A stretch of 64,000 nt of DNA, taken from NCBI GenBank assembly GCA_963848305.1, contig CAWKDC010000001.1:22490-86489 (forward strand), in the 5' to 3' direction. Shown piece after piece: positions 12,565 to 40,416 of the stretch. The notes under the pieces are model-generated. The model was not told the DNA's origin and searched no databases. It saw only the letters and a program-made list of their open reading frames with translations. Made by a program: the position numbers and the translations under genes. The first letter of the stretch is position 1; each line of letters begins with the position of its first letter. Source of the DNA: an uncultured Gammaproteobacteria bacterium. GTDB lineage: Bacteria; Pseudomonadota; Gammaproteobacteria; JABCZS01.

Positions 12565-12680
12565 TTTTCGATTGTCGATTGCCGATTGTCGACTGATGAT
12601 TGCCATCAAGTCCGCGAAGCGGGCTGATCGCCATCGGCATTCGATAAATCGGCAATCGAAAATCGGCAATCGACAATGAT
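12565..12680. repeat. long imperfect palindrome with CGATTG/CAATCG sub-repeats between treS and the next gene
   Basis: ttttcgattgtcgattgccgattgtcgac ... gtcgacaatcg-type arms (ggcaatcgaaaatcggcaatcgacaatgat) around a GC-rich centre. Confidence 0.5.
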
Positions 12681-13964
12681 ATGGCTGTGACTGACGAATC
12701 CCTTCTTACCGACGATTTCCTGCGACAGATCACCGCCGCAGGGGAAGTGGACATCCTTGTCGGCGTCCCCACCTTGAATAATCACGACACCATCGCGCGT
12801 GTCATCAGCGCCATTCGCGTGGGTTTCGTCAAGTACTTCCCGAGGGAAAGGGCCGCTCTGGTCAATGTGGATGGAGGGTCCAAGGATGGAACACAGGAGA
12901 TTGTAAGGAGCACAGCCGCCCCCGATTTCCGGGCCTTTCTGGCCTCCAGTCCGCTCCGCACCATGCACACGCTGACCACGTCGTACGGCGCGATGCAGGG
13001 AAAAGGGGGCGCCCTGCATGTGATCCTGGCAACCGCCGAGTTGTTGCGCGCCAAGGTATGCGCCATCGTTTCTCCGGACCTGGAAAGCCTGACGCCGGAG
13101 TGGATCGAAGCCTTGACGCGGCCGATTTACCGGGAGGGATTCGACTTTCTTGCCCCGATTTACCAGCGCCACAGGTTCGATGGGTTGTTGATCAGTCACA
13201 TCCTTTCTCCCCTCGTGGCCGCGGCCTACGGCTGCGAAATCGAGGAGCCCCTGGGCGGGGAATTGGCGTTCTCGGGCCGGCTGGCTTCCCATTATTTGAG
13301 CCAGGATGCGTGGCAGTTGGACCTGATGCGCTCCGCGCCCGAAATCTGGATGGTCACCACGGCTCTGGTGGGAGAGTACCGGCTGTGCCAGGCCTTTCTG
13401 GGCCCCAAGGTGCATGCGGCAAATCCGGCGAGTCCGGACCTTGCCGTTACCATCCAACAAGTTGTAGGAGCGCTCTTCAGTTGCCTCGAAGCCCACCAGT
13501 CCTACTGGATGACTCACGAAGGAATCCGGAGCGTTCCCGCCTTTGGATTCCAGTATGACCTGGACCTTCCACCCATCCGCGTCAACCGCAAGCGGATGCT
13601 CAACACGTTTCTGAACGGAGTAGCGGAACTCGCCTCAATCCTTGAAGCGGCCCTTTCTCCTCAGACCTTGCAGCAGATTCAAGCGATCGCGAAACTCGAC
13701 GGCGAAGGTTTCTCGTTTCCCGACGATCTCTGGGTCAAGACCGTCTATGAATTCGCCGGCGCCTTTCACCGCTCGGTGATCAATCGCGATCATTTGCTGC
13801 AAGCCTTGACACCGCTGTACCTCGGCCGAATCAACTCCTTTCTTTCAGAAAATCACAGGTCGAGCGCCACGGTAGCCGGGCAAAGGATCAAGAAGCTTCG
13901 TAGCCAGTTCGATAGCTTTGAAGCCCTATTTGGGGGAACACTGGAACGCCCAGAAGTGAGGTGA
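12681..13964 (+). CDS. glycosyltransferase-like protein of unknown specificity (GT-A-like N-terminus)
   Basis: An intact 427-aa ORF, DILVGVPTLNNHDTIARVISAI...VNVDGGSKDGT; its stop overlaps the next gene start (ATGATCTATGG), which suggests an operon with treS. Confidence 0.5.
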   Translation: MAVTDESLLTDDFLRQITAAGEVDILVGVPTLNNHDTIARVISAIRVGFVKYFPRERAALVNVDGGSKDGTQEIVRSTAAPDFRAFLASSPLRTMHTLTTSYGAMQGKGGALHVILATAELLRAKVCAIVSPDLESLTPEWIEALTRPIYREGFDFLAPIYQRHRFDGLLISHILSPLVAAAYGCEIEEPLGGELAFSGRLASHYLSQDAWQLDLMRSAPEIWMVTTALVGEYRLCQAFLGPKVHAANPASPDLAVTIQQVVGALFSCLEAHQSYWMTHEGIRSVPAFGFQYDLDLPPIRVNRKRMLNTFLNGVAELASILEAALSPQTLQQIQAIAKLDGEGFSFPDDLWVKTVYEFAGAFHRSVINRDHLLQALTPLYLGRINSFLSENHRSSATVAGQRIKKLRSQFDSFEALFGGTLERPEVR

Positions 13965-14720: not shown

Positions 14721-14798
14721 GACGTAGAGGCGGCTTTAGGCCGCCATTTGCCGTGGTTTTACGGTCGCGACATGGCGGCGTAAAGCCGCCTCTACGTC
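14721..14798. repeat. REPIN-like inverted REP pair
   Basis: gacgtagaggcggctttaggccgcc ... 28-bp spacer ... ggcggcgtaaagccgcctctacgtc; it lies between convergent genes. Confidence 0.6.
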
Positions 14799-16323: not shown

Positions 16324-17107
16324 CTACCAATCACGCGCGAAGCCGGCCGTCCATCCGCCATCCACCACCAGCACGGTGGCGGTGACGTAGCTGGCGTCAT
16401 CGGATGCCAGAAAAAGCGCGGCCTTGGCAATTTCTTCCGGCGTTCCCGGCCGGCCCAGCGCTACGTGAGACAACAAGCTGTCGCCAGTTTCTTCCCTTCC
16501 GGGCTGTAGAACAGCGACTTCGTTCCTTCCACAAGGATCGAGCCGGGGGCGATAGCGTTCACGCGAATCCCATATTGCCCGACCTCCAGGGCGTGGGAGC
16601 GGGTAAAGTTTATCACCCCGGCTTTGCCGCCGCGAAGGCCGATTGCACGCGAACTGGTACGACGCCAAACGCCGAACTGATGTTGATGATGGTTCCCTTG
16701 CGGCGTTTCACCATGCGGGCCGAAACAGCCCGCGAACAATAGAAGAGCCCGTCCAGGTCCACGCGGATGATCCGGTGCCAATCGTCATCCAGGAACTCGT
16801 GAATAGGGTGGCGCTCTTTGCCCAGGTTGATTCCTGCATTGTTCACCAGGATATCGATTGGCCCGAGGTCCGCTTCCACGGCCGCGACCATCGCGTTCAC
16901 CACATCCACGTCACCGACATCTCCCGGGTAGAATTTTGCCTTCCCGCCGCGCTTTTGAATCTCCGCAACGGTCTGCTCGCCGGTGGGTTTAATGTCATTC
17001 ACGGCAATCACCGCGCCGTTTTCCGAGAAAGCGTAGGCCATGGCCTGCCCAATACCCTGCCCGGAGCCGGTAATCAACGCGACGCGTCCCGCTAAGTCCA
17101 CTTTCAT
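16324..17107 (-). CDS. short-chain dehydrogenase/reductase (FabG-like), with two frameshifts
   Basis: [59 protein letters not shown]; a GGAGGA RBS precedes the ATG at 17107. Confidence 0.7.
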
Positions 17108-17283
17108 AGATCTTCCTCCGAGGATATTAACCGTTGGCCTCGTTTCTGGTAAAGGAGCGGCAAGCGAGAAATGCGCCGTTCCCATCAAGCTTACGGCCGG
17201 TAAAAGGAGGTTCACTCCCCGGCACGAAATCTACTCTGCCTTAAGCCGCAAAGTCAAGTACAGGCGAGTTCACCTCGCCATAT

Positions 17284-17308
17284 GGCGGCGTAGAGCCGCC
17301 TCTACGTC
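17284..17308. repeat. REP unit (ggcggcgtagagccgcctctacgtc) that served as the insertion target of the MITE-like element
   Basis: Same family as 14774-14798; its 3' 10 bp cctctacgtc is duplicated on the far side of the element. Confidence 0.55.
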
Positions 17309-17514
17309 CAACACAGTTCACTTAGCTGTCATCAGGGATTAAACAAATCTAATTACGTGCGAAGCACCTTGGAGTGCGAGTGGCAGCAGCCACCGCCTTC
17401 CGCCCGAGATTCATACGGGACTCGCACGAATGAAAGGCGGTGGCTGCTGCCACTCGCACTCCAAGGTGCTTCGCACGAGCCCATGTCAAAATGCGCGCTA
17501 AGTGAACAGTGTTG
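17309..17514. mobile_element. 206-bp MITE-like non-autonomous element, copy 1: 17-bp terminal inverted repeats, an internal 42-bp perfect-stem hairpin, a 10-bp target site duplication
   Basis: TIR caacacagttcacttagc / gctaagtgaacagtgttg; TSD cctctacgtc at 17299-17308 and 17515-17524; stem arms 17356-17397 and 17436-17477 are perfectly complementary; a near-identical copy lies at 39011-39216. Confidence 0.7.
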
Positions 17515-17579
17515 CCTCTACGTCAGAAGTTAAGCGTAGCTTCACTTCGATTGAGTTTTTGGGCGCTTCAGAGTAAGTT

Positions 17580-19797
17580 ATGGCTGCCTTGGCGAATTGC
17601 AGCAGGGGGTCAGAACAGGGAGGCAGCATGATCCAGCATCCTATTTGCGCAACCAGCACCGCGGACAATTGCATACGTCAAGTCTTGGGGAATTGGCGAT
17701 GTGAACGCGCCTGCCTGAGCTTCTTTTCTCGCCTCGCACTAGTGGTCTTCCTGGGGGCCGCCATGATGCCATTTCCGGGCGGAGCGTTCGCGCAGGAAGG
17801 AGCTCCGGTGGCGCGGTGGTCATTCGACAATGCTACCGGCCCGGCGGTGCGCGACACGGCGAGCGGAACGGAGGACAAGGTTGGAGGTTTCTACCAATAC
17901 GTTGCGGGGGTTTCTGGAAATGGCTTGCGGTTTGATGGATACACCACCAGTGTCGTCCGCAAGGCGGAAAATGCCCCCAGATTGCACGGTTCATTTTCGG
18001 TGGAAGCCTGGATCGCCCTTGATACGTACCCATGGAACTGGATTCCCGTGGTTGACCAGGAGAAGGATCAGCAGGCAGGTTACTTTTTCGGCGTGGACGC
18101 GCTTGGGCACGTTGGTCTGCAGGTGGATATTGACGGGATTTGGTATTCCGTGACCTCGACCGACGCAAATTCCGCTGAAGAAGTGGGCTCAGATTACGGG
18201 GACCTTCGAGGAGAACCGTGGACTGACCCTATACCTTGACGGAAGAGAAGTGGGACGTCTAGCTGCGCGCGGTGCGATGCTGCCCGCCGATATGCAGGAC
18301 TTGGTGATCGGCAGGGTGCGCGAACCGTTGCCTCCCTTCCCTTCTTTCGCCATTAACCCGTGGCATCCGGTCTGGTACTCGCTCGATGGCATTTTGGATG
18401 AGGTGGCGATTTATGACCGGAGTTTGAGCGGAGAAGAGGTTCAGAGGACCTACGCCTCTGCTCACGCCCCCGCCGGAGAAGTTATCCCGTGGCCGGTGCT
18501 TCCCTCCGGCCCTCCCGGAGCGGGTCCTTTCGGCGCCTACTATTACACCCTCAAGTACGAGGACACCTGGGACCGTCTGCGGCGCATCGGGCCTGATTCC
18601 GACGTGGTGGTCCGCTTCGACGACTCCCCGATTCGCCTGGTCTTCTGGCAGGGGACCGGCTACATCCCCACCTGGGTCACCGAGAACGGCACGTGGTATA
18701 CGGACGAATTCCTTGAAGGGTACGCTTCCGAATGCCCGGACCACGGGGATTGCGAGCCCATGTCCGACAAGCAGGACAGGTATTCGCACGTCAACATTGT
18801 GGAGAGCAGCGACGCGCGCGTGGTGGTTCACTGGCGTTATGCGCTGGCGGAGGTGGAACATTACCTGGGCGCCGAGCCCGATCCCTTGACGGGATGGTTT
18901 GATTGGGCCGACGAATATTGGACGGTTTACCCGGACGGGGTGGCCATTCGCAAGCAGGTCTTGCATCCCACCGACCAGACCAAGGGGTTCGAATGGCAGG
19001 AAACCATTGTCATCAACCCGCCCGGCCGCCGCCCGGACGATGATATCAATCTGGACGCCCTTACCATTGGCAATATGAAAGGAGAGACGGCCACTTACAC
19101 CTGGCTGCCAAAGGCTTCAGGAGTGTACGGGGATCTGCACCAGCCTAAATCCATTGATAAACCTGAGAATCCAAATATCCAGTTGGTGAATCTGAAATCA
19201 GCCTGGAAGCCTTTTGAAATCGTTTCTCCCACCCATGCCAGATTCAAAGTCTTCAATGTTTCACAGTCCTATTTCTCGTTTGGTTGCTGGAACCATTGGC
19301 CGATCACGCAAATTGCTTCCAGCGCCAGATATCTGCGTGGCGCCCGACCGGGCGTCGCACACCTCGCTTTCCCACATCTATTGGGACACCTATGCAACCA
19401 CCGAAAGTTCGATCACCAAGCTTCTGATGGATGGCTTGACCACGAAATCGGCCGCGGAACTGCTCCCGCTGGCGAAATCGTGGTTGTCGCCACCCCCGGT
19501 TGAACGTCGAAGGCGAGGTCTTTCAAAGCGAGGGCTACGACCCGGCGCAGCGGGCCTTTGTGGTGGTCCGGAAGAATGGCGGGAAAGCCGGCGGCATTGG
19601 CGTTGACTTTGCAGGCCAGCGATTCCTCACCGGTTTTGAATCCGGCCATCGTGATCAAGAACTGGGGAGATGGCGGCGGCGCAACTGAAGATCAACGGGA
19701 AACCGGTAAACTGGGGGAAGGATTTCCGCCGCGGGTACGTTCAGGAATCTCGACGGCACTGACTTGGTCGTGTGGATCCGGCGGGAGTCAGTAATGC
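17580..19797 (+). CDS. secreted LamG/concanavalin-like domain protein (large, frameshifted)
   Basis: Signal-like LALVVFLGAAMMPFPGGAFAQEG, GNGLRFDG...SFSVEAWIALD LamG-type signature; continues through ORFs 18250.., 19500.., 19558.. Confidence 0.5.
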
Positions 19798-24326: not shown

Positions 24327-25670
24327 ATGAAGACCGGAAATCACAAATTTGACCGCGGGACTGCATTAATACTCGCCACGGCCTGCATTGCCATGGCCAT
24401 TTTAGCCACGTCTTGTGGTGGTGGGGCCGGCAGCAGCGCCACCGCTGATACAGCCTCCACAACAGGACTCTCGATAAGTCCCCCTACCGTGACCTTCGGC
24501 AGCCAAGCTGTTGGGACGGCAAGTGCGGCCCAGACCAACACCGTCACGAATGCGGGCAACTCGGCCGTGGGCATTTCCAGCATTGCGCTCGGAGGGACAA
24601 ATCCCAGCGACTTTGCACAATCCACTAACTGCGGCTCCACCGTTGCGGCGGGTGCCAGTTGCACAATCACCGTGACCTTCCAACCGACGGCGACGGGAAC
24701 TCGCAGCGCCGAAGTAACTGTCACCGACAATGTCTCCCACAGCCCCCATAAGGTCAGCGTCAGCGGAACGGGTATGGCGTCTACTGTCACCCTATCTCCC
24801 ACCAGCCTCACTTTCGCCAGCCAAACCGTCGGCGCCGCCAGCGCGGCCCAGACCATCACGCTGAGCAACTCGGGCAACGCGGCCTTAAGTGTGACCAGCA
24901 TCGCGGTCTCCGGCGCCAACGCCAGTGACTTTACAGAAACCAATAATTGCGGATCAAGCGTGGCGGCTGGAGCCAATTGCACGATCAGCGTTACCTTCAA
25001 GCCGGCCGCGGCAGGAGCTCGCACCGCCGCCATCTCCGTTACGGACAACGCTACCGGCGGCCCGCAGAGCGCGGTCCTTTCGGGCACCGGGGGGAGCACT
25101 ACCGCCGCGGCCAGCGTTTCGCCCACCAGCCTGTCTTTTGGGAACGAAGCGGTGGACATGGTCAGCACCTCGCAAGTCGTTACCCTGAGCAACACAGGCA
25201 GCGCGGGCTTGGGCATCTCGAGCATCGCCTTTACGGGTGCTGATGCCGCCGACTTCACGGAGGTTGACACTTGCAGTCCCGCGGTGGCCGCAGGGAGCAC
25301 TTGCACGATCGCAATTTTATTTACACCCGCCGCCAGCGGAACGCGCACGGCTACCTTGAGCATCGCCGACAATGCCACCGGCAGCCCGCAGTCCGTGTCG
25401 CTTTCGGGCTCGGGAACGCACGACGTAATGCTGTCTTGGACCGCCAGTTCGACTCCTGGGGTCATGGGCTATAACGTCTACCGGGGGACGACCTCCGGTG
25501 GAGAGAGTGCGGCACCGCTGAATTCCGCGCCGGTTTGCAATACCACATTTGCGGACGCGAATGTCACGGCAGGAGCGACGTACTACTATCACGTGACGGC
25601 CATAGCTGCGAATGATGTTACGCAGAGCTCGGCCTCGAACGAAACGACTGCAACCGTCCCCACACCTTAA
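24327..25670 (+). CDS. lipoprotein with three choice-of-anchor-D/ASH-like about 100-aa repeats and a C-terminal fibronectin-III-like domain
   Basis: Lipobox ILATSCGGG; repeats LSPTSLTF.SQ.VG.ASAAQT.TLSNSGNAAL...DF...NCGSSVAAGA.CTI.VTF.P...G.R.A..SVTDNA; LSWTASSTPGVMGYNVYRG...YYYHVTA. Confidence 0.7.
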   Translation: MKTGNHKFDRGTALILATACIAMAILATSCGGGAGSSATADTASTTGLSISPPTVTFGSQAVGTASAAQTNTVTNAGNSAVGISSIALGGTNPSDFAQSTNCGSTVAAGASCTITVTFQPTATGTRSAEVTVTDNVSHSPHKVSVSGTGMASTVTLSPTSLTFASQTVGAASAAQTITLSNSGNAALSVTSIAVSGANASDFTETNNCGSSVAAGANCTISVTFKPAAAGARTAAISVTDNATGGPQSAVLSGTGGSTTAAASVSPTSLSFGNEAVDMVSTSQVVTLSNTGSAGLGISSIAFTGADAADFTEVDTCSPAVAAGSTCTIAILFTPAASGTRTATLSIADNATGSPQSVSLSGSGTHDVMLSWTASSTPGVMGYNVYRGTTSGGESAAPLNSAPVCNTTFADANVTAGATYYYHVTAIAANDVTQSSASNETTATVPTP

Positions 25671-28157: not shown

Positions 28158-28398
28158 ACCCGCCTTCTCCGAAAAAAAATTCCGGCAGAAATTGGACTAC
28201 ATGCACAAGAACCCGGTGACGCGCGGCCTGGTGATCTCTCCCGGTGATTGGCCGTGGTCAAGCTGGAGGTTCTACTATTCACAGGATGCATCGATTCTCC
28301 GCATGGACCGGATGCGTTGAGTCCAACTTTCGAGAAGTCCCTTCGGGAGATCGCAGACTTCAAAGAGCCGGAGTCTGCCAGCCCCCGTGTCTTGCAGC
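28158..28398 (+). mobile_element. partial copy (about 240 bp, 3' end only) of the IS200/RAYT element found at 30.8-31.47 kb
   Basis: About 90% identical to 31227-31466, including the A8 tract, the DWPWSSWRFYY coding segment and the subterminal hairpin gcagact...agtctgc. Confidence 0.75.
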
Positions 28399-29091: not shown

Positions 29092-30879
29092 CTACTGCTG
29101 CTCCCAGGGGTCATGATAGGGCAATGGGTCAACAAAGATCTTGCCGGGATTCAGACGAGGGTACGTACCCATGATCAGATTCGATGTGCCAGCATCGTTG
29201 AAACCTCGGCCACTCGTAAAGATAGTGTAGCCGCCAGCCGAAAGACCGGACAGGCCAAGCCCTTGTGCCACCCAAGCGGACGTTTCATACCCGCGATACT
29301 CGAACGAGAAGTCCGGCAGCGGGGCCGTCGAACTCCTTGGATCGAGATTGTCCATCACGTGGGTTCCCTCGTGGCCAGCATTTATCGCCATGATGGTTTC
29401 GTTTGGATTCTTGCTCATGTCGAACGTAACTGCTGAGCCGACCGTTGCAGCAGCACCTAGCCCGCGCAGGTCGCCGGTCGTGACGGTCACTCCGTTATCA
29501 TCGCCTGCCTTGCCATAGGTCTTCAGAACTGCATCGAGCCTCGCACGCTCCTCGCTGCCCTTTCCGAAGCTGTTTCTCGCCGCTTTTATGTCGTCCAACG
29601 AATCCTTAAACTCTTTCTTGAAAGCCTTGAAATCAGCGTTACACTGTTTGTCAGATTTCTCGCAAGGGTTCTTGAAATCGTAGAGCCCGGTGGGATCGAC
29701 GCGAGTGGTGGGATTATTCCGGACATAAGCATACATATTCCAGGTCTGGGGGTCGCTGGGGTCGGCAGCGGCCAGGCCTGCCGGGTCGGGGGTGAGCCAG
29801 CGGCCGGCCAGGTCGTCATAGACCCGGTGCGGGGCCAATTTAAAATCGCCATCCCCCTCCTGAAACGCCGCCCACTCCCACTCCCATAAATTACCGGCCG
29901 TTTGCCACAACTGACCCCAGGGGTACCACAGTAAGTCCTCGGTCCAGTTCCCCAGATGGTTGGTGTCCTGGGTTGCGGAACCGAGAAAGTTGGGGTGCTG
30001 AAGATAGGTCTCGTTGTTGTCACGGGAATATGCTGCGATTTTCCGCCCCCCCGCTCGTACCTGGTCCACCCACAAGCTGCTGCCGTCGGCGTTCCCCAGC
30101 CAATCACCATTGGGAGCGAACAATGCGGACATGTTGGTCCACGGCACGGCATAGTAGACCTCTTGGCCGAAGGCATTATAAACTGCGCTGGAATTGGTTT
30201 CCCGCCCCTCGCCATCCCAGGAGAAGCTATTCGTGCCGTCACTGGTCAGATTCCCCGCGGCGTCGTAGCTGAAGCCGTCAATGCGATTCGGGTAATTGTT
30301 GTAAGTCAATACCGGGCAAGGGCCGTTCGTAGACCCGTTCATCAAGCAGGTCATGTTGCCGTAGGCGTCATAGCCAAAGGCGAGGTTATACGTGCTGTTG
30401 CCGCTCGCCTGCGCGCAAGCCAGGCGATTCACGCCGTCATAGACATACAAGGCCGAGTGGCTCATCGTGCTGTTCACCGCGTCCGTGAAAGTATAACCAA
30501 TCACGTCGCCGTTGTTGCCGCTCCCGGACGCGGACACGGGGCAGCCGGGCGGCGTACTGCCGCCGGGCAAAGAGTAATTATACCCCAGTGTATAGTACGC
30601 TCCGGGGTTGCCGCTGGTGCCCAACTGAATCTGGGTCGGCTGCATCCGGTTATTGTAGGAGTAGGTTTCCTGGCTGTTCGTGCACCCGGAACCCGCGCAG
30701 CCGTTGGTGAGACCGCTTAGCGCCCCCCAGGGAGTGTAGGCCGGCTGGCGCTCAGACACCCGTTCTTTGGTGTCTGCGATTCCCGAAGGGACGTTCTCTT
30801 CCGGCCCCGCACCGTCGAGAGTATACTCTTCTGCGCCATGCCCTTCTACCACCGCGTTTACAGTCCCGGTGAACTGCAA
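29092..30879 (-). CDS. RHS/YD-repeat protein C-terminal fragment with a variable C-terminal toxin domain carrying an HExxH motif (N-terminus lost at the IS junction)
   Basis: YD repeats (YVYDGVNRL, FGYDAYGNMT, FSYDAAGNLTSDG); RHS core end RWLTPDPAGL...NMYAYVRNNPTTRVDPTGL; about 210-aa tail with AINAGHEGTHVMD. Confidence 0.75.
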   Translation of the reverse strand: MQFTGTVNAVVEGHGAEEYTLDGAGPEENVPSGIADTKERVSERQPAYTPWGALSGLTNGCAGSGCTNSQETYSYNNRMQPTQIQLGTSGNPGAYYTLGYNYSLPGGSTPPGCPVSASGSGNNGDVIGYTFTDAVNSTMSHSALYVYDGVNRLACAQASGNSTYNLAFGYDAYGNMTCLMNGSTNGPCPVLTYNNYPNRIDGFSYDAAGNLTSDGTNSFSWDGEGRETNSSAVYNAFGQEVYYAVPWTNMSALFAPNGDWLGNADGSSLWVDQVRAGGRKIAAYSRDNNETYLQHPNFLGSATQDTNHLGNWTEDLLWYPWGQLWQTAGNLWEWEWAAFQEGDGDFKLAPHRVYDDLAGRWLTPDPAGLAAADPSDPQTWNMYAYVRNNPTTRVDPTGLYDFKNPCEKSDKQCNADFKAFKKEFKDSLDDIKAARNSFGKGSEERARLDAVLKTYGKAGDDNGVTVTTGDLRGLGAAATVGSAVTFDMSKNPNETIMAINAGHEGTHVMDNLDPRSSTAPLPDFSFEYRGYETSAWVAQGLGLSGLSAGGYTIFTSGRGFNDAGTSNLIMGTYPRLNPGKIFVDPLPYHDPWEQQ

Positions 30880-31466
30880 TTCATCACCACCAGCACCTAT
30901 CGCCGCACGCCCCTTTTCCTCTCGGATCGCTTTCGGCGCTGCTTTGTCCAGAGGCTGGAGGAGGTGCGGCAGGAATTACATTTCCTGCTCGTCGGCTGGG
31001 TTCTGATGCCCGAGCATTTTCATATGCTGATCAAGCCCGAGCCCGCCGAAACCACTCCCCTGATTATGAAGGGGCTCAAGGAGGAATCGGCCAAGCGCAT
31101 CATCAGAACACTTCGGGAAAACCTTCGGTATCCTTGGTGCCGGAAGACGCTCGCCAGGCTGCGGCTGCCCTCCACGGTTCACGATGAATCACACTACCGC
31201 CTCTGGCAGCGCCGCTTTTACCCCTTCAATGTCTTCTCCGAAAAAAAATTCCAGCAGAAATTGGACTACATGCACAACAACCCGGTGACGCGCGGGCTGG
31301 TGAGTTCCCCCGGCGACTGGCCGTGGTCAAGCTGGAGGTTCTACTATTTGCAGGATGCGTCAATTCTCCGCATGGATCGGATGCGCTGAGCTCAACTTAC
31401 CAGAAGTCCCTTCGGGAGATCGCAGACTCCAAAGAGCCGAAGTCTGCGCCAGCCCCGTGTCTGGAA
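30800..31466 (+). mobile_element. IS200/IS605-like element carrying a REP-associated tyrosine transposase (left boundary approximate)
   Basis: RAYT gene plus a subterminal hairpin cgcagactccaaagagccgaagtctgcg; the 3' 240 bp is duplicated at 28158-28398. Confidence 0.65.
30838..31389 (+). CDS. REP-associated tyrosine transposase (RAYT, IS200-like Y1 HuH transposase)
   Basis: HuH motif MPEHFHMLIKP; YRLWQRRFY; DYMHNNPVTRGLVSSPGDWPWSSWRFY, which matches the RAYT signature. Confidence 0.8.
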   Translation: MPFYHRVYSPGELQFITTSTYRRTPLFLSDRFRRCFVQRLEEVRQELHFLLVGWVLMPEHFHMLIKPEPAETTPLIMKGLKEESAKRIIRTLRENLRYPWCRKTLARLRLPSTVHDESHYRLWQRRFYPFNVFSEKKFQQKLDYMHNNPVTRGLVSSPGDWPWSSWRFYYLQDASILRMDRMR

Positions 31467-38912: not shown

Positions 38913-39010
38913 AGTCCATGAGGGGCGCGGCCGACAGCTATCTGGGTGGAACTTCCAGCCACAAGTCGATCTGCGCCTCTGGGAGGCACCGAGAAAACCG
39001 GGCTAGGCGG

Positions 39011-39216
39011 CAAAACTGTTCACCTAGCTGTCGTCAGGGATTAAACGAATCTAGTTACGTGCGAAGCACCTTGGAGTGCGTGTGGCAGCAGCCACCGCCT
39101 TTCATTCGTGCGAGTTCCGTATGAATCTCGGGCGGAAGGCGGTGGCTGCTGCCACACGCACTCCAAGGTGCTTCGCACGAGCCCATGTCAAAATGCGCGC
39201 TAAGTGAAAAGTGTTG
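39011..39216. mobile_element. MITE-like element copy 2 (206 bp), inserted at the stop codon of the acyltransferase gene
   Basis: Co-linear with 17309-17514 apart from a few substitutions and an inverted 38-nt loop; TSD gggctaggcgg / gggctagccgg at 39000-39010 and 39217-39227. Confidence 0.7.
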
Positions 39217-39219
39217 GGG

Positions 39220-40416
39220 CTAGCCGGGACGGGAAAGAACGTAGGTGAATCGTTCCTTGAGTCTTAGGAACGGCAGCTCCAGGAATTGATATGAGGCTAT
39301 GGAAAAGGCAACCGTAAGCGCGAGACCCAGCAAGGCATACACAGGGTAAAGCCCCGCATGAAGCGTCCCAAGGACTTTGCGCGCCAGGAGCAAAGACAAA
39401 TAGTGATAGACGTAGAGCCCATAAGAGATTTTGCCCAAATACACGAGTCGAAACCAACCGACCATCCGCATGCGTTCCACGGGCAGACCGAGGGCAGAAA
39501 GAAACAGCAAAGTACATGCGGCCGCTACCAAAGGGAAACCTAACATTCCACGCAGCAGGGTGGGGGCAGCGCCAGGTGCCGTGCCACCAAGGAGTTCGGC
39601 TGCCCCCATCAACCCCCCGAGCCCAACAATAACAAAAATCAAACGCACACCGATGGAAAGTGAGGGGATTTTTCCCCGAAGACCCAGGGAGATGAGAATG
39701 CCCACCGCAATGCCATCGAGCCTGGTAAAAGTGCTGTACGAAAGCATCTGCATGGTTGTGTGCCCAGCCAGCAGAATAAACCGCGTCCCCGAAGCCAGCA
39801 CCAGCAGCCCGACCGCCACTGCGGCCAGGCGCTTAGGCGAAGACCTCCGTACCACCCGGGGCCAAAGCAAATAGAATTGCTCCTCCACCGAGACGCTCCA
39901 TAGCGGCAAGGCAACCGAAGCAGGAAGTCCATGCAGCGCACTGATCCAGTTGCCACTCAGGAGAAGAAAGGCCAGCACGTATTGCCAGGTAAAAATCTGC
40001 CCAGCCACAAACTCGTGGAGCGTCCAGGCAATCCCGATAAAGAAGAAATAAAGCGGCCAAATTCGCAGGATGCGGCGCACGTAGAAGGCTTTCACATCAA
40101 GAAACCCACGCTTCGCCTTTTCTCTCACCAGCAACTCCGTAATAAGGTAAGAGCTCAGCACAAAAAACAGGTCAACACCGAAGTTCCCGGCCCCCAGAGC
40201 ATCATTGCCCAGGCGAATCAAGCTCGATACCAGCGGCATTACCGTGTAACGCAGCAGTTCCGGTGGAATAGAACGGGGCTTGAGATGATAAAAGAAAACG
40301 CCAAGAAACGCGAAGAAGCGAAGCACATCCAGCTCCGGCCGATAAAAGCGCTCTCCGGTTCCAATTTTCGACCCGGCGATCTCATTCGAATTCCGGATCA
40401 AGCCCGGTGGGATCAT
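39220..40416 (-). CDS. acyltransferase family 3 (polysaccharide O-acyltransferase) membrane protein
   Basis: LDVLRFFAFLGVFFYH..., 10 or more TM helices. Confidence 0.7.
   Translation of the reverse strand: MIPPGLIRNSNEIAGSKIGTGERFYRPELDVLRFFAFLGVFFYHLKPRSIPPELLRYTVMPLVSSLIRLGNDALGAGNFGVDLFFVLSSYLITELLVREKAKRGFLDVKAFYVRRILRIWPLYFFFIGIAWTLHEFVAGQIFTWQYVLAFLLLSGNWISALHGLPASVALPLWSVSVEEQFYLLWPRVVRRSSPKRLAAVAVGLLVLASGTRFILLAGHTTMQMLSYSTFTRLDGIAVGILISLGLRGKIPSLSIGVRLIFVIVGLGGLMGAAELLGGTAPGAAPTLLRGMLGFPLVAAACTLLFLSALGLPVERMRMVGWFRLVYLGKISYGLYVYHYLSLLLARKVLGTLHAGLYPVYALLGLALTVAFSIASYQFLELPFLRLKERFTYVLSRPG

Follow-up and report, generated by a model that had tools for sequence, protein, structure and literature searches.

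How can two copies of one short repeat hold the same internal spacer in opposite orientations while everything outside the spacer remains co-linear? The question is raised by a 64,000-nucleotide (nt) stretch of DNA from an uncultured Gammaproteobacteria bacterium (assembly GCA_963848305.1, contig CAWKDC010000001.1, positions 22,490 to 86,489 of the forward strand; the whole stretch is called the window below), in which a 206-bp repeat was found to be present twice, both times on the + strand (copy 1, 17309-17514; copy 2, 39011-39216). Each copy was found to be a miniature transposable element with inverted repeats (MITE) and with a long hairpin in its interior. The answer favoured here, to which we give a probability of about 0.55, is a non-programmed, palindrome-driven flip of the hairpin spacer by template switching, which would leave a stable heritable allele at each locus and an orientation that is apparently without function.

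The left parts of the two copies (17309-17399 and 39011-39101) were returned by a repeat finder as direct repeats with 92% identity and the right parts (17434-17514 and 39136-39216) as direct repeats with 98% identity. Within each copy, the hairpin arms were found to be 44 nt long, 100% complementary and 34 nt apart. The spacer of copy 1 was found to be the reverse complement of the copy 2 spacer at 33 of 34 positions, with the outer parts co-linear; used as a query, it gave a minus-strand match in copy 2 (97%), and the 122-nt hairpins of the two copies, taken whole, were reverse complements of each other at 98%. The single spacer difference was G/A on the + strand, and one base pair of the arm was found to differ between the copies, being altered on both arms (gcgAgtggc/gccacTcgc in copy 1, gcgTgtggc/gccacAcgc in copy 2). 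A 33/34 reverse-complement match within co-linear flanks cannot be a matter of chance. The original prediction, that the loop is exactly inverted between copies with arms and flanks co-linear and with a single c/t difference, was thus borne out, whereas the sizes that it gave, a 38-nt loop (17398-17435) and 42-bp arms, need correction: that loop takes in two bases of each arm as well as the 34-nt spacer, and the arms measure 44 bp. It had also stated that transcripts of the two copies would differ only in the loop and share an identical stem, which is logically correct; the top-strand hairpin RNA of one copy equals the bottom-strand RNA of the other.

Copy 1 was found to contain the left terminal inverted repeat CAACACAGTTCACTTAGC (17309-17326, +) followed by the asymmetric subterminal module A (17327-17355, +), from which the polarity of the element is read, the left hairpin arm of 44 nt (17356-17399, +), the 34-nt spacer ccgcccgag...cgaatga (17400-17433, +), the right hairpin arm (17434-17477, +), which is 100% complementary to the left one, and the subterminal module B with the right terminal inverted repeat at 17497-17514 (together 17478-17514, +). 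The element was found to be flanked by the same decamer, CCTCTACGTC, on the left (17299-17308) and on the right (17515-17524), so that its target duplication is identical at 10 of 10 positions. Copy 2 was found to contain the left arm at 39058-39101, the spacer tcattcgtg...ctcgggcgg at 39102-39135 and the right arm at 39136-39179 (all +), flanked by the target-site duplications GGGCTAGGCGG on the left (39000-39010; GGGCTAG(G)CGG, one base more than in an orthologous locus, L070) and GGGCTAGCCG on the right (39217-39226). At the L070 locus the flanking decamers were found to be identical at 9 of 10 positions.

The identity of the repeat as a MITE, that is, a non-autonomous element bearing the ends of an IS4-family insertion sequence (IS), follows from its terminal repeats, its 10-bp duplications and the matching ends of a full-length IS. 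Terminal inverted repeats of 18 bp, of the type CAACACTGTTCACTTAGC, were found at both ends of both copies (four matches in the window against 0.04 expected). Relatives were collected by two scans, one with an arm 20-mer against species-representative genomes (68 loci) and one with an inner-stem 26-mer against JGI metagenomes (53 loci), and the fetched loci or contigs that carry relatives are given numbers with the prefix L. Flanking decamers were identical at 8 or more of 10 positions in 18 of the 25 complete family members, with the target consensus nnnCTAGnCC, and the modal element length was 206 bp, which is too small to hold a transposase. The contig L099 was found to contain a 1.46-kb IS (L099:1766-3223) with the ends CAATACTGTTCACTTAAC/T, 16 of 18 positions of which are identical to the MITE ends; the left terminal repeat of copy 1 matches them. 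This IS encodes a 420-amino-acid (aa) open reading frame (ORF) with the domains Nterm_IS4 (82 bits) and DDE_Tnp_1 (62 bits), both over the Pfam cut-offs, and a transposase of this type presumably mobilises the MITE.

In L099, a MITE copy (1550-1755) and the full-length IS4-family IS were found to lie only 10 bp apart, and the outer flanks of the pair (L099:1550-3233), GGGCTAAACC and GGGCTAAGTC, resemble one target duplication, which suggests that MITE and IS moved as a composite through their outer ends. A literature search found no paper on acidobacterial MITEs of this type, and a search of the literature with the conserved 12-13-mers of the arm returned only unrelated eukaryotic primer matches; the repeats form an IS4-type MITE family, of bacteria from soil and peat, that the literature searched does not describe.

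Modules A and B, which lie between the terminal repeats and the hairpin (A also occurs as a variant, A2), were found to be unlike each other, so that each element has a polarity against which the orientation of its spacer can be read. Since the spacer is reversed with modules A and B in place, an inversion with its breakpoints inside the arms is the only simple route from one form to the other. About 50 hairpins of the MITE family of the window were found in metagenome and genome contigs, 25 of them complete with both terminal repeats. The modules allowed 37 copies to be oriented, 21 as in copy 2 and 16 as in copy 1, and 31 copies remained after removal of orthologues, at a ratio of 18:13, in soil and peat contigs of Acidobacteriota type. 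Both orientations are thus common among the non-redundant copies elsewhere, the ratio that the original prediction had proposed to inspect.

A neighbour-joining tree built from the non-loop sequence and the re-oriented loop was found to require at least 11 flips. The 11 steps compare with 10.2 +/- 1.4 when the tip states were shuffled, the nearest neighbour had the same orientation in 15 of 31 cases, and spacer orientation is therefore without phylogenetic signal. Within the clade of the window copies (modules A and B), L085, L099, L074, L007 and copy 2 were alike (the orientation labelled R) and copy 1 alone was opposite (labelled F); because all of its closest relatives have the other orientation, copy 1 is the derived flip. 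A reading by which hairpin cassettes were inserted independently, one way round or the other, at an identical point of the shell was rejected as unparsimonious, since it calls for 11 or more such insertions.

The outer 22 nt of the arm, GTGCGAAGCACCTTGGAGTGCG, were found to head a large hairpin family in metagenome-assembled genomes (MAGs) of Acidobacteriota, and also in Opitutia and Lentisphaeria, with other inner stems, loops of about 11-103 nt and two or more further surrounding repeat shells, whose ends differ. The hairpin core is common to unrelated shells and phyla (L001-L068; examples are L005:1463-1566, L025:7113-7216, L002:1599 and L015:1295), and each arm was found to consist of two mini-hairpins, GTGC-GAA-GCAC and GTGGC-AGCA-GCCAC. 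A first sister shell, in a long-read MAG, was found to contain 12 nearly identical copies divided 9:3 by orientation, and a second, with seven copies, contained two or three short loops out of six that look flipped in an alignment read by eye; the flanks were identical and asymmetric in both. Among long-loop variants of the second shell, both orientations occur in a listing read by eye. The contigs of the sister families reach up to about 2 Mb and have Flye-style names, and they were taken to be long-read assemblies.

Inherited insertions were found to behave differently from separate copies. The copy 2 locus was found in L069-L071 through the adjoining acyltransferase, and all three were in the copy 2 orientation despite several substitutions in the element; the copy 1 locus was found in L128 through the ORF at 24327-25670, where the spacer is flipped as in the window and the arms likewise have the A/T variant. 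Exact-protein look-ups with seven ORFs near copy 1 returned no orthologous locus: six ORFs were without a record, and the seventh led only to a 4.5-kb contig that ends short of the locus. Comparison of the flanks of all fetched loci gave 11 orthologous insertion groups with 16 independent contrasts, none of them flipped, as read from consensus assemblies, in which minority orientations within a population would not show. Orientation is thus fixed per locus in assemblies, and no sign of rapid switching at a locus was found, which supports a mutational inversion and not an active switch. Two further candidates for a same-locus comparison were rejected: L076/L111 against L082, taken as one locus with a flipped loop, have insertion points about 70 nt apart and one truncated element, and L077 and L078 have only a short module in common.

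Since the orientations of the window copies recur in independent assemblies, an assembly error is unlikely. An artefact of sequencing or assembly, in which the palindrome is traversed either way in the graph or the polymerase switches strands in vitro, is brought to mind by the many family members from short-read metagenome contigs and by some contigs with identical flanks that differ within the element; it was nevertheless judged extremely improbable, since both orientations recur locus by locus (L128, L069 and L070, the names of which suggest a long-read assembler), all 16 orthologue contrasts agree where random choice of path would leave about half discordant, and 44-nt arms are shorter than the largest k-mers usually used. 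The contigs in question are L016/L126 and L075/L114, with flanks 100% identical and element interiors 4-5% different, and these differences come either from gene conversion among copies or from chimeric short-read assembly through the repeat.

The fixity of inherited insertions bears equally on a programmed, recombinase-driven switch for phase variation with the arms as recombination sites. Inverted repeats do bracket a segment that is seen in both orientations, and a gene for a Y1 (IS200-like) transposase lies 13 kb off in the window; enzymes acting in trans are conceivable. However, orientation was the same at all orthologous insertions; no recombinase gene was found adjoining either copy when the immediate neighbours and four ORFs at 28.5-32.1 kb were scanned; and a simple consensus scan around both copies found no promoter- or terminator-like sites within either element. 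The gene contexts are also unlike, with divergent 5' ends at copy 1 and convergent 3' ends at copy 2 (the neighbours encode a short-chain dehydrogenase, a Laminin_G_3 protein, a hypothetical protein and an acyltransferase). In the sister families, flips also affect spacers that are unrelated in sequence and in length (about 11-103 nt), and a segment of 34 bp is far below the size of known invertons. A programmed switch is therefore very improbable. The original prediction had offered template switching or recombinase-mediated flipping as the mechanism; the former fits the data and the latter is not supported, given the fixed loci, the lack of a recombinase neighbour and the lack of promoter- or terminator-like signals.

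Because the copies are split almost evenly, the orientation of the spacer is probably irrelevant to function. The hairpin was found to fold as RNA at -106 to -113 kcal/mol (z about -17), and it is predicted to be extremely stable as RNA or single-stranded DNA. Rfam gave no family, either at gathering thresholds for the window as a whole or for 17200-17600 in E-value mode; the best match, MIR3454, reached 55.7 bits against a cut-off of 142, and only generic long-hairpin matches were returned.

The template-switch step that we infer would run as follows. During DNA synthesis across the element, in replication or repair, the growing strand would pair with the complementary arm, the spacer would then be copied from the opposite strand, and synthesis would return through the other arm. 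The spacer would come out flipped and one arm would be copied from the other, so that the arms would remain perfectly complementary. The spacer of copy 1 would have been swapped for its own reverse complement through such an event.

The arms were found to be in keeping with such copying. In the window copies, arm mismatches were present at 0 of 88 positions against 4 of 36 in the terminal repeats, and across the family at 2.8% against 12.8%, statistics that carry a bias, since a copy had to have one arm intact to be picked up by the database patterns. In about five copies, by our own count from the arm table, a single-site change was found to be shared by the two arms; with independent change of the arms, we roughly estimate that hardly any such case would arise. 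Copy 1 was found to join the flip with a both-arm change, and a point mutation followed by a single template switch would account for the two together. In L116:196-411 and L119:931-1146, module A was found on both sides, and the spacer is the only part of the 216-bp element outside the palindrome. Non-reciprocal copying is favoured by these symmetric elements, because reciprocal exchange would not make them, and the data favour a non-reciprocal, synthesis-based route between the arms.

The same arms can be read in terms of reciprocal intramolecular recombination, that is, a conservative inversion of the spacer between the 44-bp arms, whether RecA-dependent, through a cruciform or hairpin intermediate, or by repair of a loop break from a sister or paralogous copy in inverted register. 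The arms are perfect and long enough for homologous exchange, the product (an exact reverse complement) is the same as from template switching, and small inversions in plastids with 11-24-bp repeats are commonly ascribed to stem-loop recombination (PMC12928735). On duplex DNA, however, a 34-bp spacer makes synapsis of the arms sterically hard, and the both-arm changes, the symmetry of L116 and L119 beyond the arms, and the greater complementarity of the arms than of the terminal repeats are left unexplained. Reciprocal recombination is accordingly regarded as rather unlikely.

Template switching leaves the timing of the flips to be considered, and here separate copies were found to differ from inherited ones. 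Seven of the 16 orthologue contrasts were at 2-11% element divergence with no flip, whereas among paralogue pairs at 3-11% divergence 46 had the same orientation and 52 were flipped (3 same and 8 flipped at 3-6%, 43 and 44 at 6-11%). If orthologues behaved as paralogues, the probability of no flip in seven would be about 0.008, a figure behind which stand a small sample and paralogue pairs that are not independent. The contrast hints that flips arise at the formation of copies and not steadily in place; flips may be made when copies are generated.

That orientation is set nearly at random when a copy is generated, by transposition or by repair synthesis at the donor site, and is then kept, is a statement about timing and would fit template switching or reciprocal recombination. 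It accounts for the random orientation of paralogues even at low divergence, for the missing phylogenetic signal, for the 9:3 split of the nearly identical 12-copy family in the long-read MAG and for inherited insertions that never differ. It is weakened by the small numbers and the non-independent pairs, by short-read element divergences in which gene conversion or chimeric assembly may have a part (L016/L126 and L075/L114), and by the fact that IS4-type cut-and-paste has no known step in which the element's interior is involved; it is held to be doubtful, at about the same level as reciprocal recombination.

Several points weigh against the template-switch explanation, in addition to the bias of the arm statistics and the insensitivity of consensus assemblies to minority orientations. 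Template switching and reciprocal arm recombination followed by mismatch repair are inseparable by sequence alone. The perfection of the arms could also come from selection on an RNA or DNA hairpin. The loop inversions documented for template switching measure 4-8 nt, far below 34 nt (PMC8794818). Finally, the contrast between paralogues and orthologues suggests that flips are not clock-like in situ, which a plain replication error does not predict.

Template switching at quasi-palindromes is described by the Ripley model, and hotspots of it in E. coli have reportedly been studied by the Lovett laboratory. Template switches that invert hairpin loops and create compensatory changes in stems have been described (Monttinen & Loytynoja 2022, PMC8794818), and the loop inversions ascribed to them in ribosomal RNA (rRNA) are mostly of 4 nt and reach 7-8 nt (PMC8794818). 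The present elements resemble these cases in that the loop becomes its exact reverse complement; in both, one half of the stem would be copied from the other and so remain perfectly paired, and a compensatory change and a loop inversion would come from a single event. They differ from the rRNA cases in the spacer of 34 nt (about 11-103 nt in the sister families) and the arms of 44 bp, and from known template switches in their host, a multi-copy mobile element that supplies replicate events by the dozen.

In the non-coding DNA of plastids, small inversions associated with hairpins are said to have been described by Kelchner and Wendel in 1996. Recurrent small hairpin-bounded inversions of plastid non-coding DNA are also attributed to Kim & Lee 2005 in PMC12928735. 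As in the present family, a short spacer (5-50 bp there, with repeats of 11-24 bp) flips recurrently and homoplasiously, with little phylogenetic signal; the plastid inversions differ in lying at single-copy organelle loci, in having shorter arms, in being usually attributed to recombination and in involving no transposable element.

Inversion of the Correia element is taken here to involve its terminal repeats. For this MITE of Neisseria, PMC10969869 cites work on inversion of the element, including Siddique et al. 2011, and the inversion was proposed as a route to phase variation. In both systems a bacterial MITE is found with its interior turned round between inverted repeats of its own; they differ in that the Correia element itself inverts and carries promoters, whereas here only the loop of the internal hairpin flips and no promoter is evident.

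The terminal hairpins of parvoviruses occur in flip and flop forms; in each round of replication a viral nuclease nicks the DNA at a specific site, and hairpin transfer then gives rise to these forms. As in the present family, a palindromic hairpin with an asymmetric interior exists in two reverse-complementary forms at about 1:1, made at DNA copying. The viral hairpins differ in being located at genome termini and in being nuclease-nicked; we know of no nick site or nicking enzyme for the present element.

Invertons such as Hin/Gin and FimB/E are served by a dedicated recombinase and comprise segments typically of hundreds of bp with a promoter or a coding end, the states of which coexist. 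The present hairpins share with them inverted repeats around a segment of two orientations, but no adjoining recombinase, promoter or coding end was seen in them, and no coexisting states were seen in consensus assemblies.

REPINs consist of two inverted repetitive extragenic palindromes (REPs), which form a hairpin and are mobilised by a REP-associated tyrosine transposase, RAYT (PMC3337134). Their palindrome-bearing arms (here GTGGC-AGCA-GCCAC), variable spacer, long hairpin and many copies per genome are found in the present elements too. Unlike in REPINs, the arm starts with GTGCGAAGCACCTTGGAGTGCG, no GTAG or CGTC tag stands beside the palindrome, and IS4-type terminal repeats with 10-bp target duplications, which REPINs lack, are present. 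Membership of the REPINs was rejected on the missing tag and on the presence of DDE-type ends and target duplications.

Taken in this setting, the flips are a known kind of mutation in a new place, unusually well replicated, and the family forms a natural replicate experiment on the instability of palindromes in uncultured soil bacteria, with dozens of independent flips. With a loop of 34 nt between perfect 44-bp arms, the flips far exceed in size the loop inversions for which template switching has been held responsible to date, and the perfection of a hairpin in a mobile element may be upheld by the mutation process itself, not by selection alone. Such elements will mislead inverton finders that rely on inverted repeats, as well as alignments and repeat phylogenies. 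If flips are indeed coupled to copying, loop orientation would record copy events and serve as a marker of transposition history; the mobilisation of the MITE, or the repair of its donor site, would involve an intermediate in which the DNA folds back or switches strands at the internal palindrome; and a step of MITE propagation outside textbook cut-and-paste, resembling parvoviral flip/flop, would be exposed.

Other repeats were found in the window beside the MITE copies. GTAG-tagged REP-like palindromes, GTAGAGGCGGCTYTANGCCGCC, were found in four copies against 0 expected (348-369, +; 14724-14745, +; 14774-14795, -; 17284-17305, -), and they form a family separate from the hairpin arms. Two of them lie in a REPIN-like inverted doublet at 14721-14798, with 27-nt arms 24 nt apart. 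MITE copy 1 was found to be inserted exactly at the GTAG end of the REP copy at 17284, and its target duplication, read in reverse complement, gives GACGTAGAGG, which is the GTAG end of that REP-like palindrome. The ORF at 30838-31389 (+), of 183 aa, was found to encode the IS200-like tyrosine transposase domain Y1_Tnp (37 bits against a cut-off of 23), which makes its product a candidate for the RAYT that serves the GTAG-tagged REPs. The 3' end of this ORF is overlapped by a direct repeat of 215 nt and 91% identity (28164-28378 and 31233-31447).

The gene for the Laminin_G_3 protein (17580-19503, +), which is of 731 aa in L128, was found to be split in the window into ORFs of 219 and 417 aa, and the short-chain dehydrogenase (16613-17215, -), of 261 aa in L128, is present as an ORF of 200 aa. 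These frameshifts relative to L128 suggest an error-prone long-read assembly, and window genes that are frameshifted or off by a residue are the likely cause of the failed exact-protein look-ups. An inverted repeat of 31 nt (12571-12601 and 12647-12677, 87%), with units like ATTGTCGAT/TGCCGAT, was found just upstream of an ORF that starts at 12681, possibly as an operator or else as a further small repeat. The ORF at 24327-25670 was found to contain repeated Ig-like domains of ASH/HYDIN type, so that the 270-nt direct repeat inside it (24479-24748 and 24797-25066, 70%) is an internal domain duplication.

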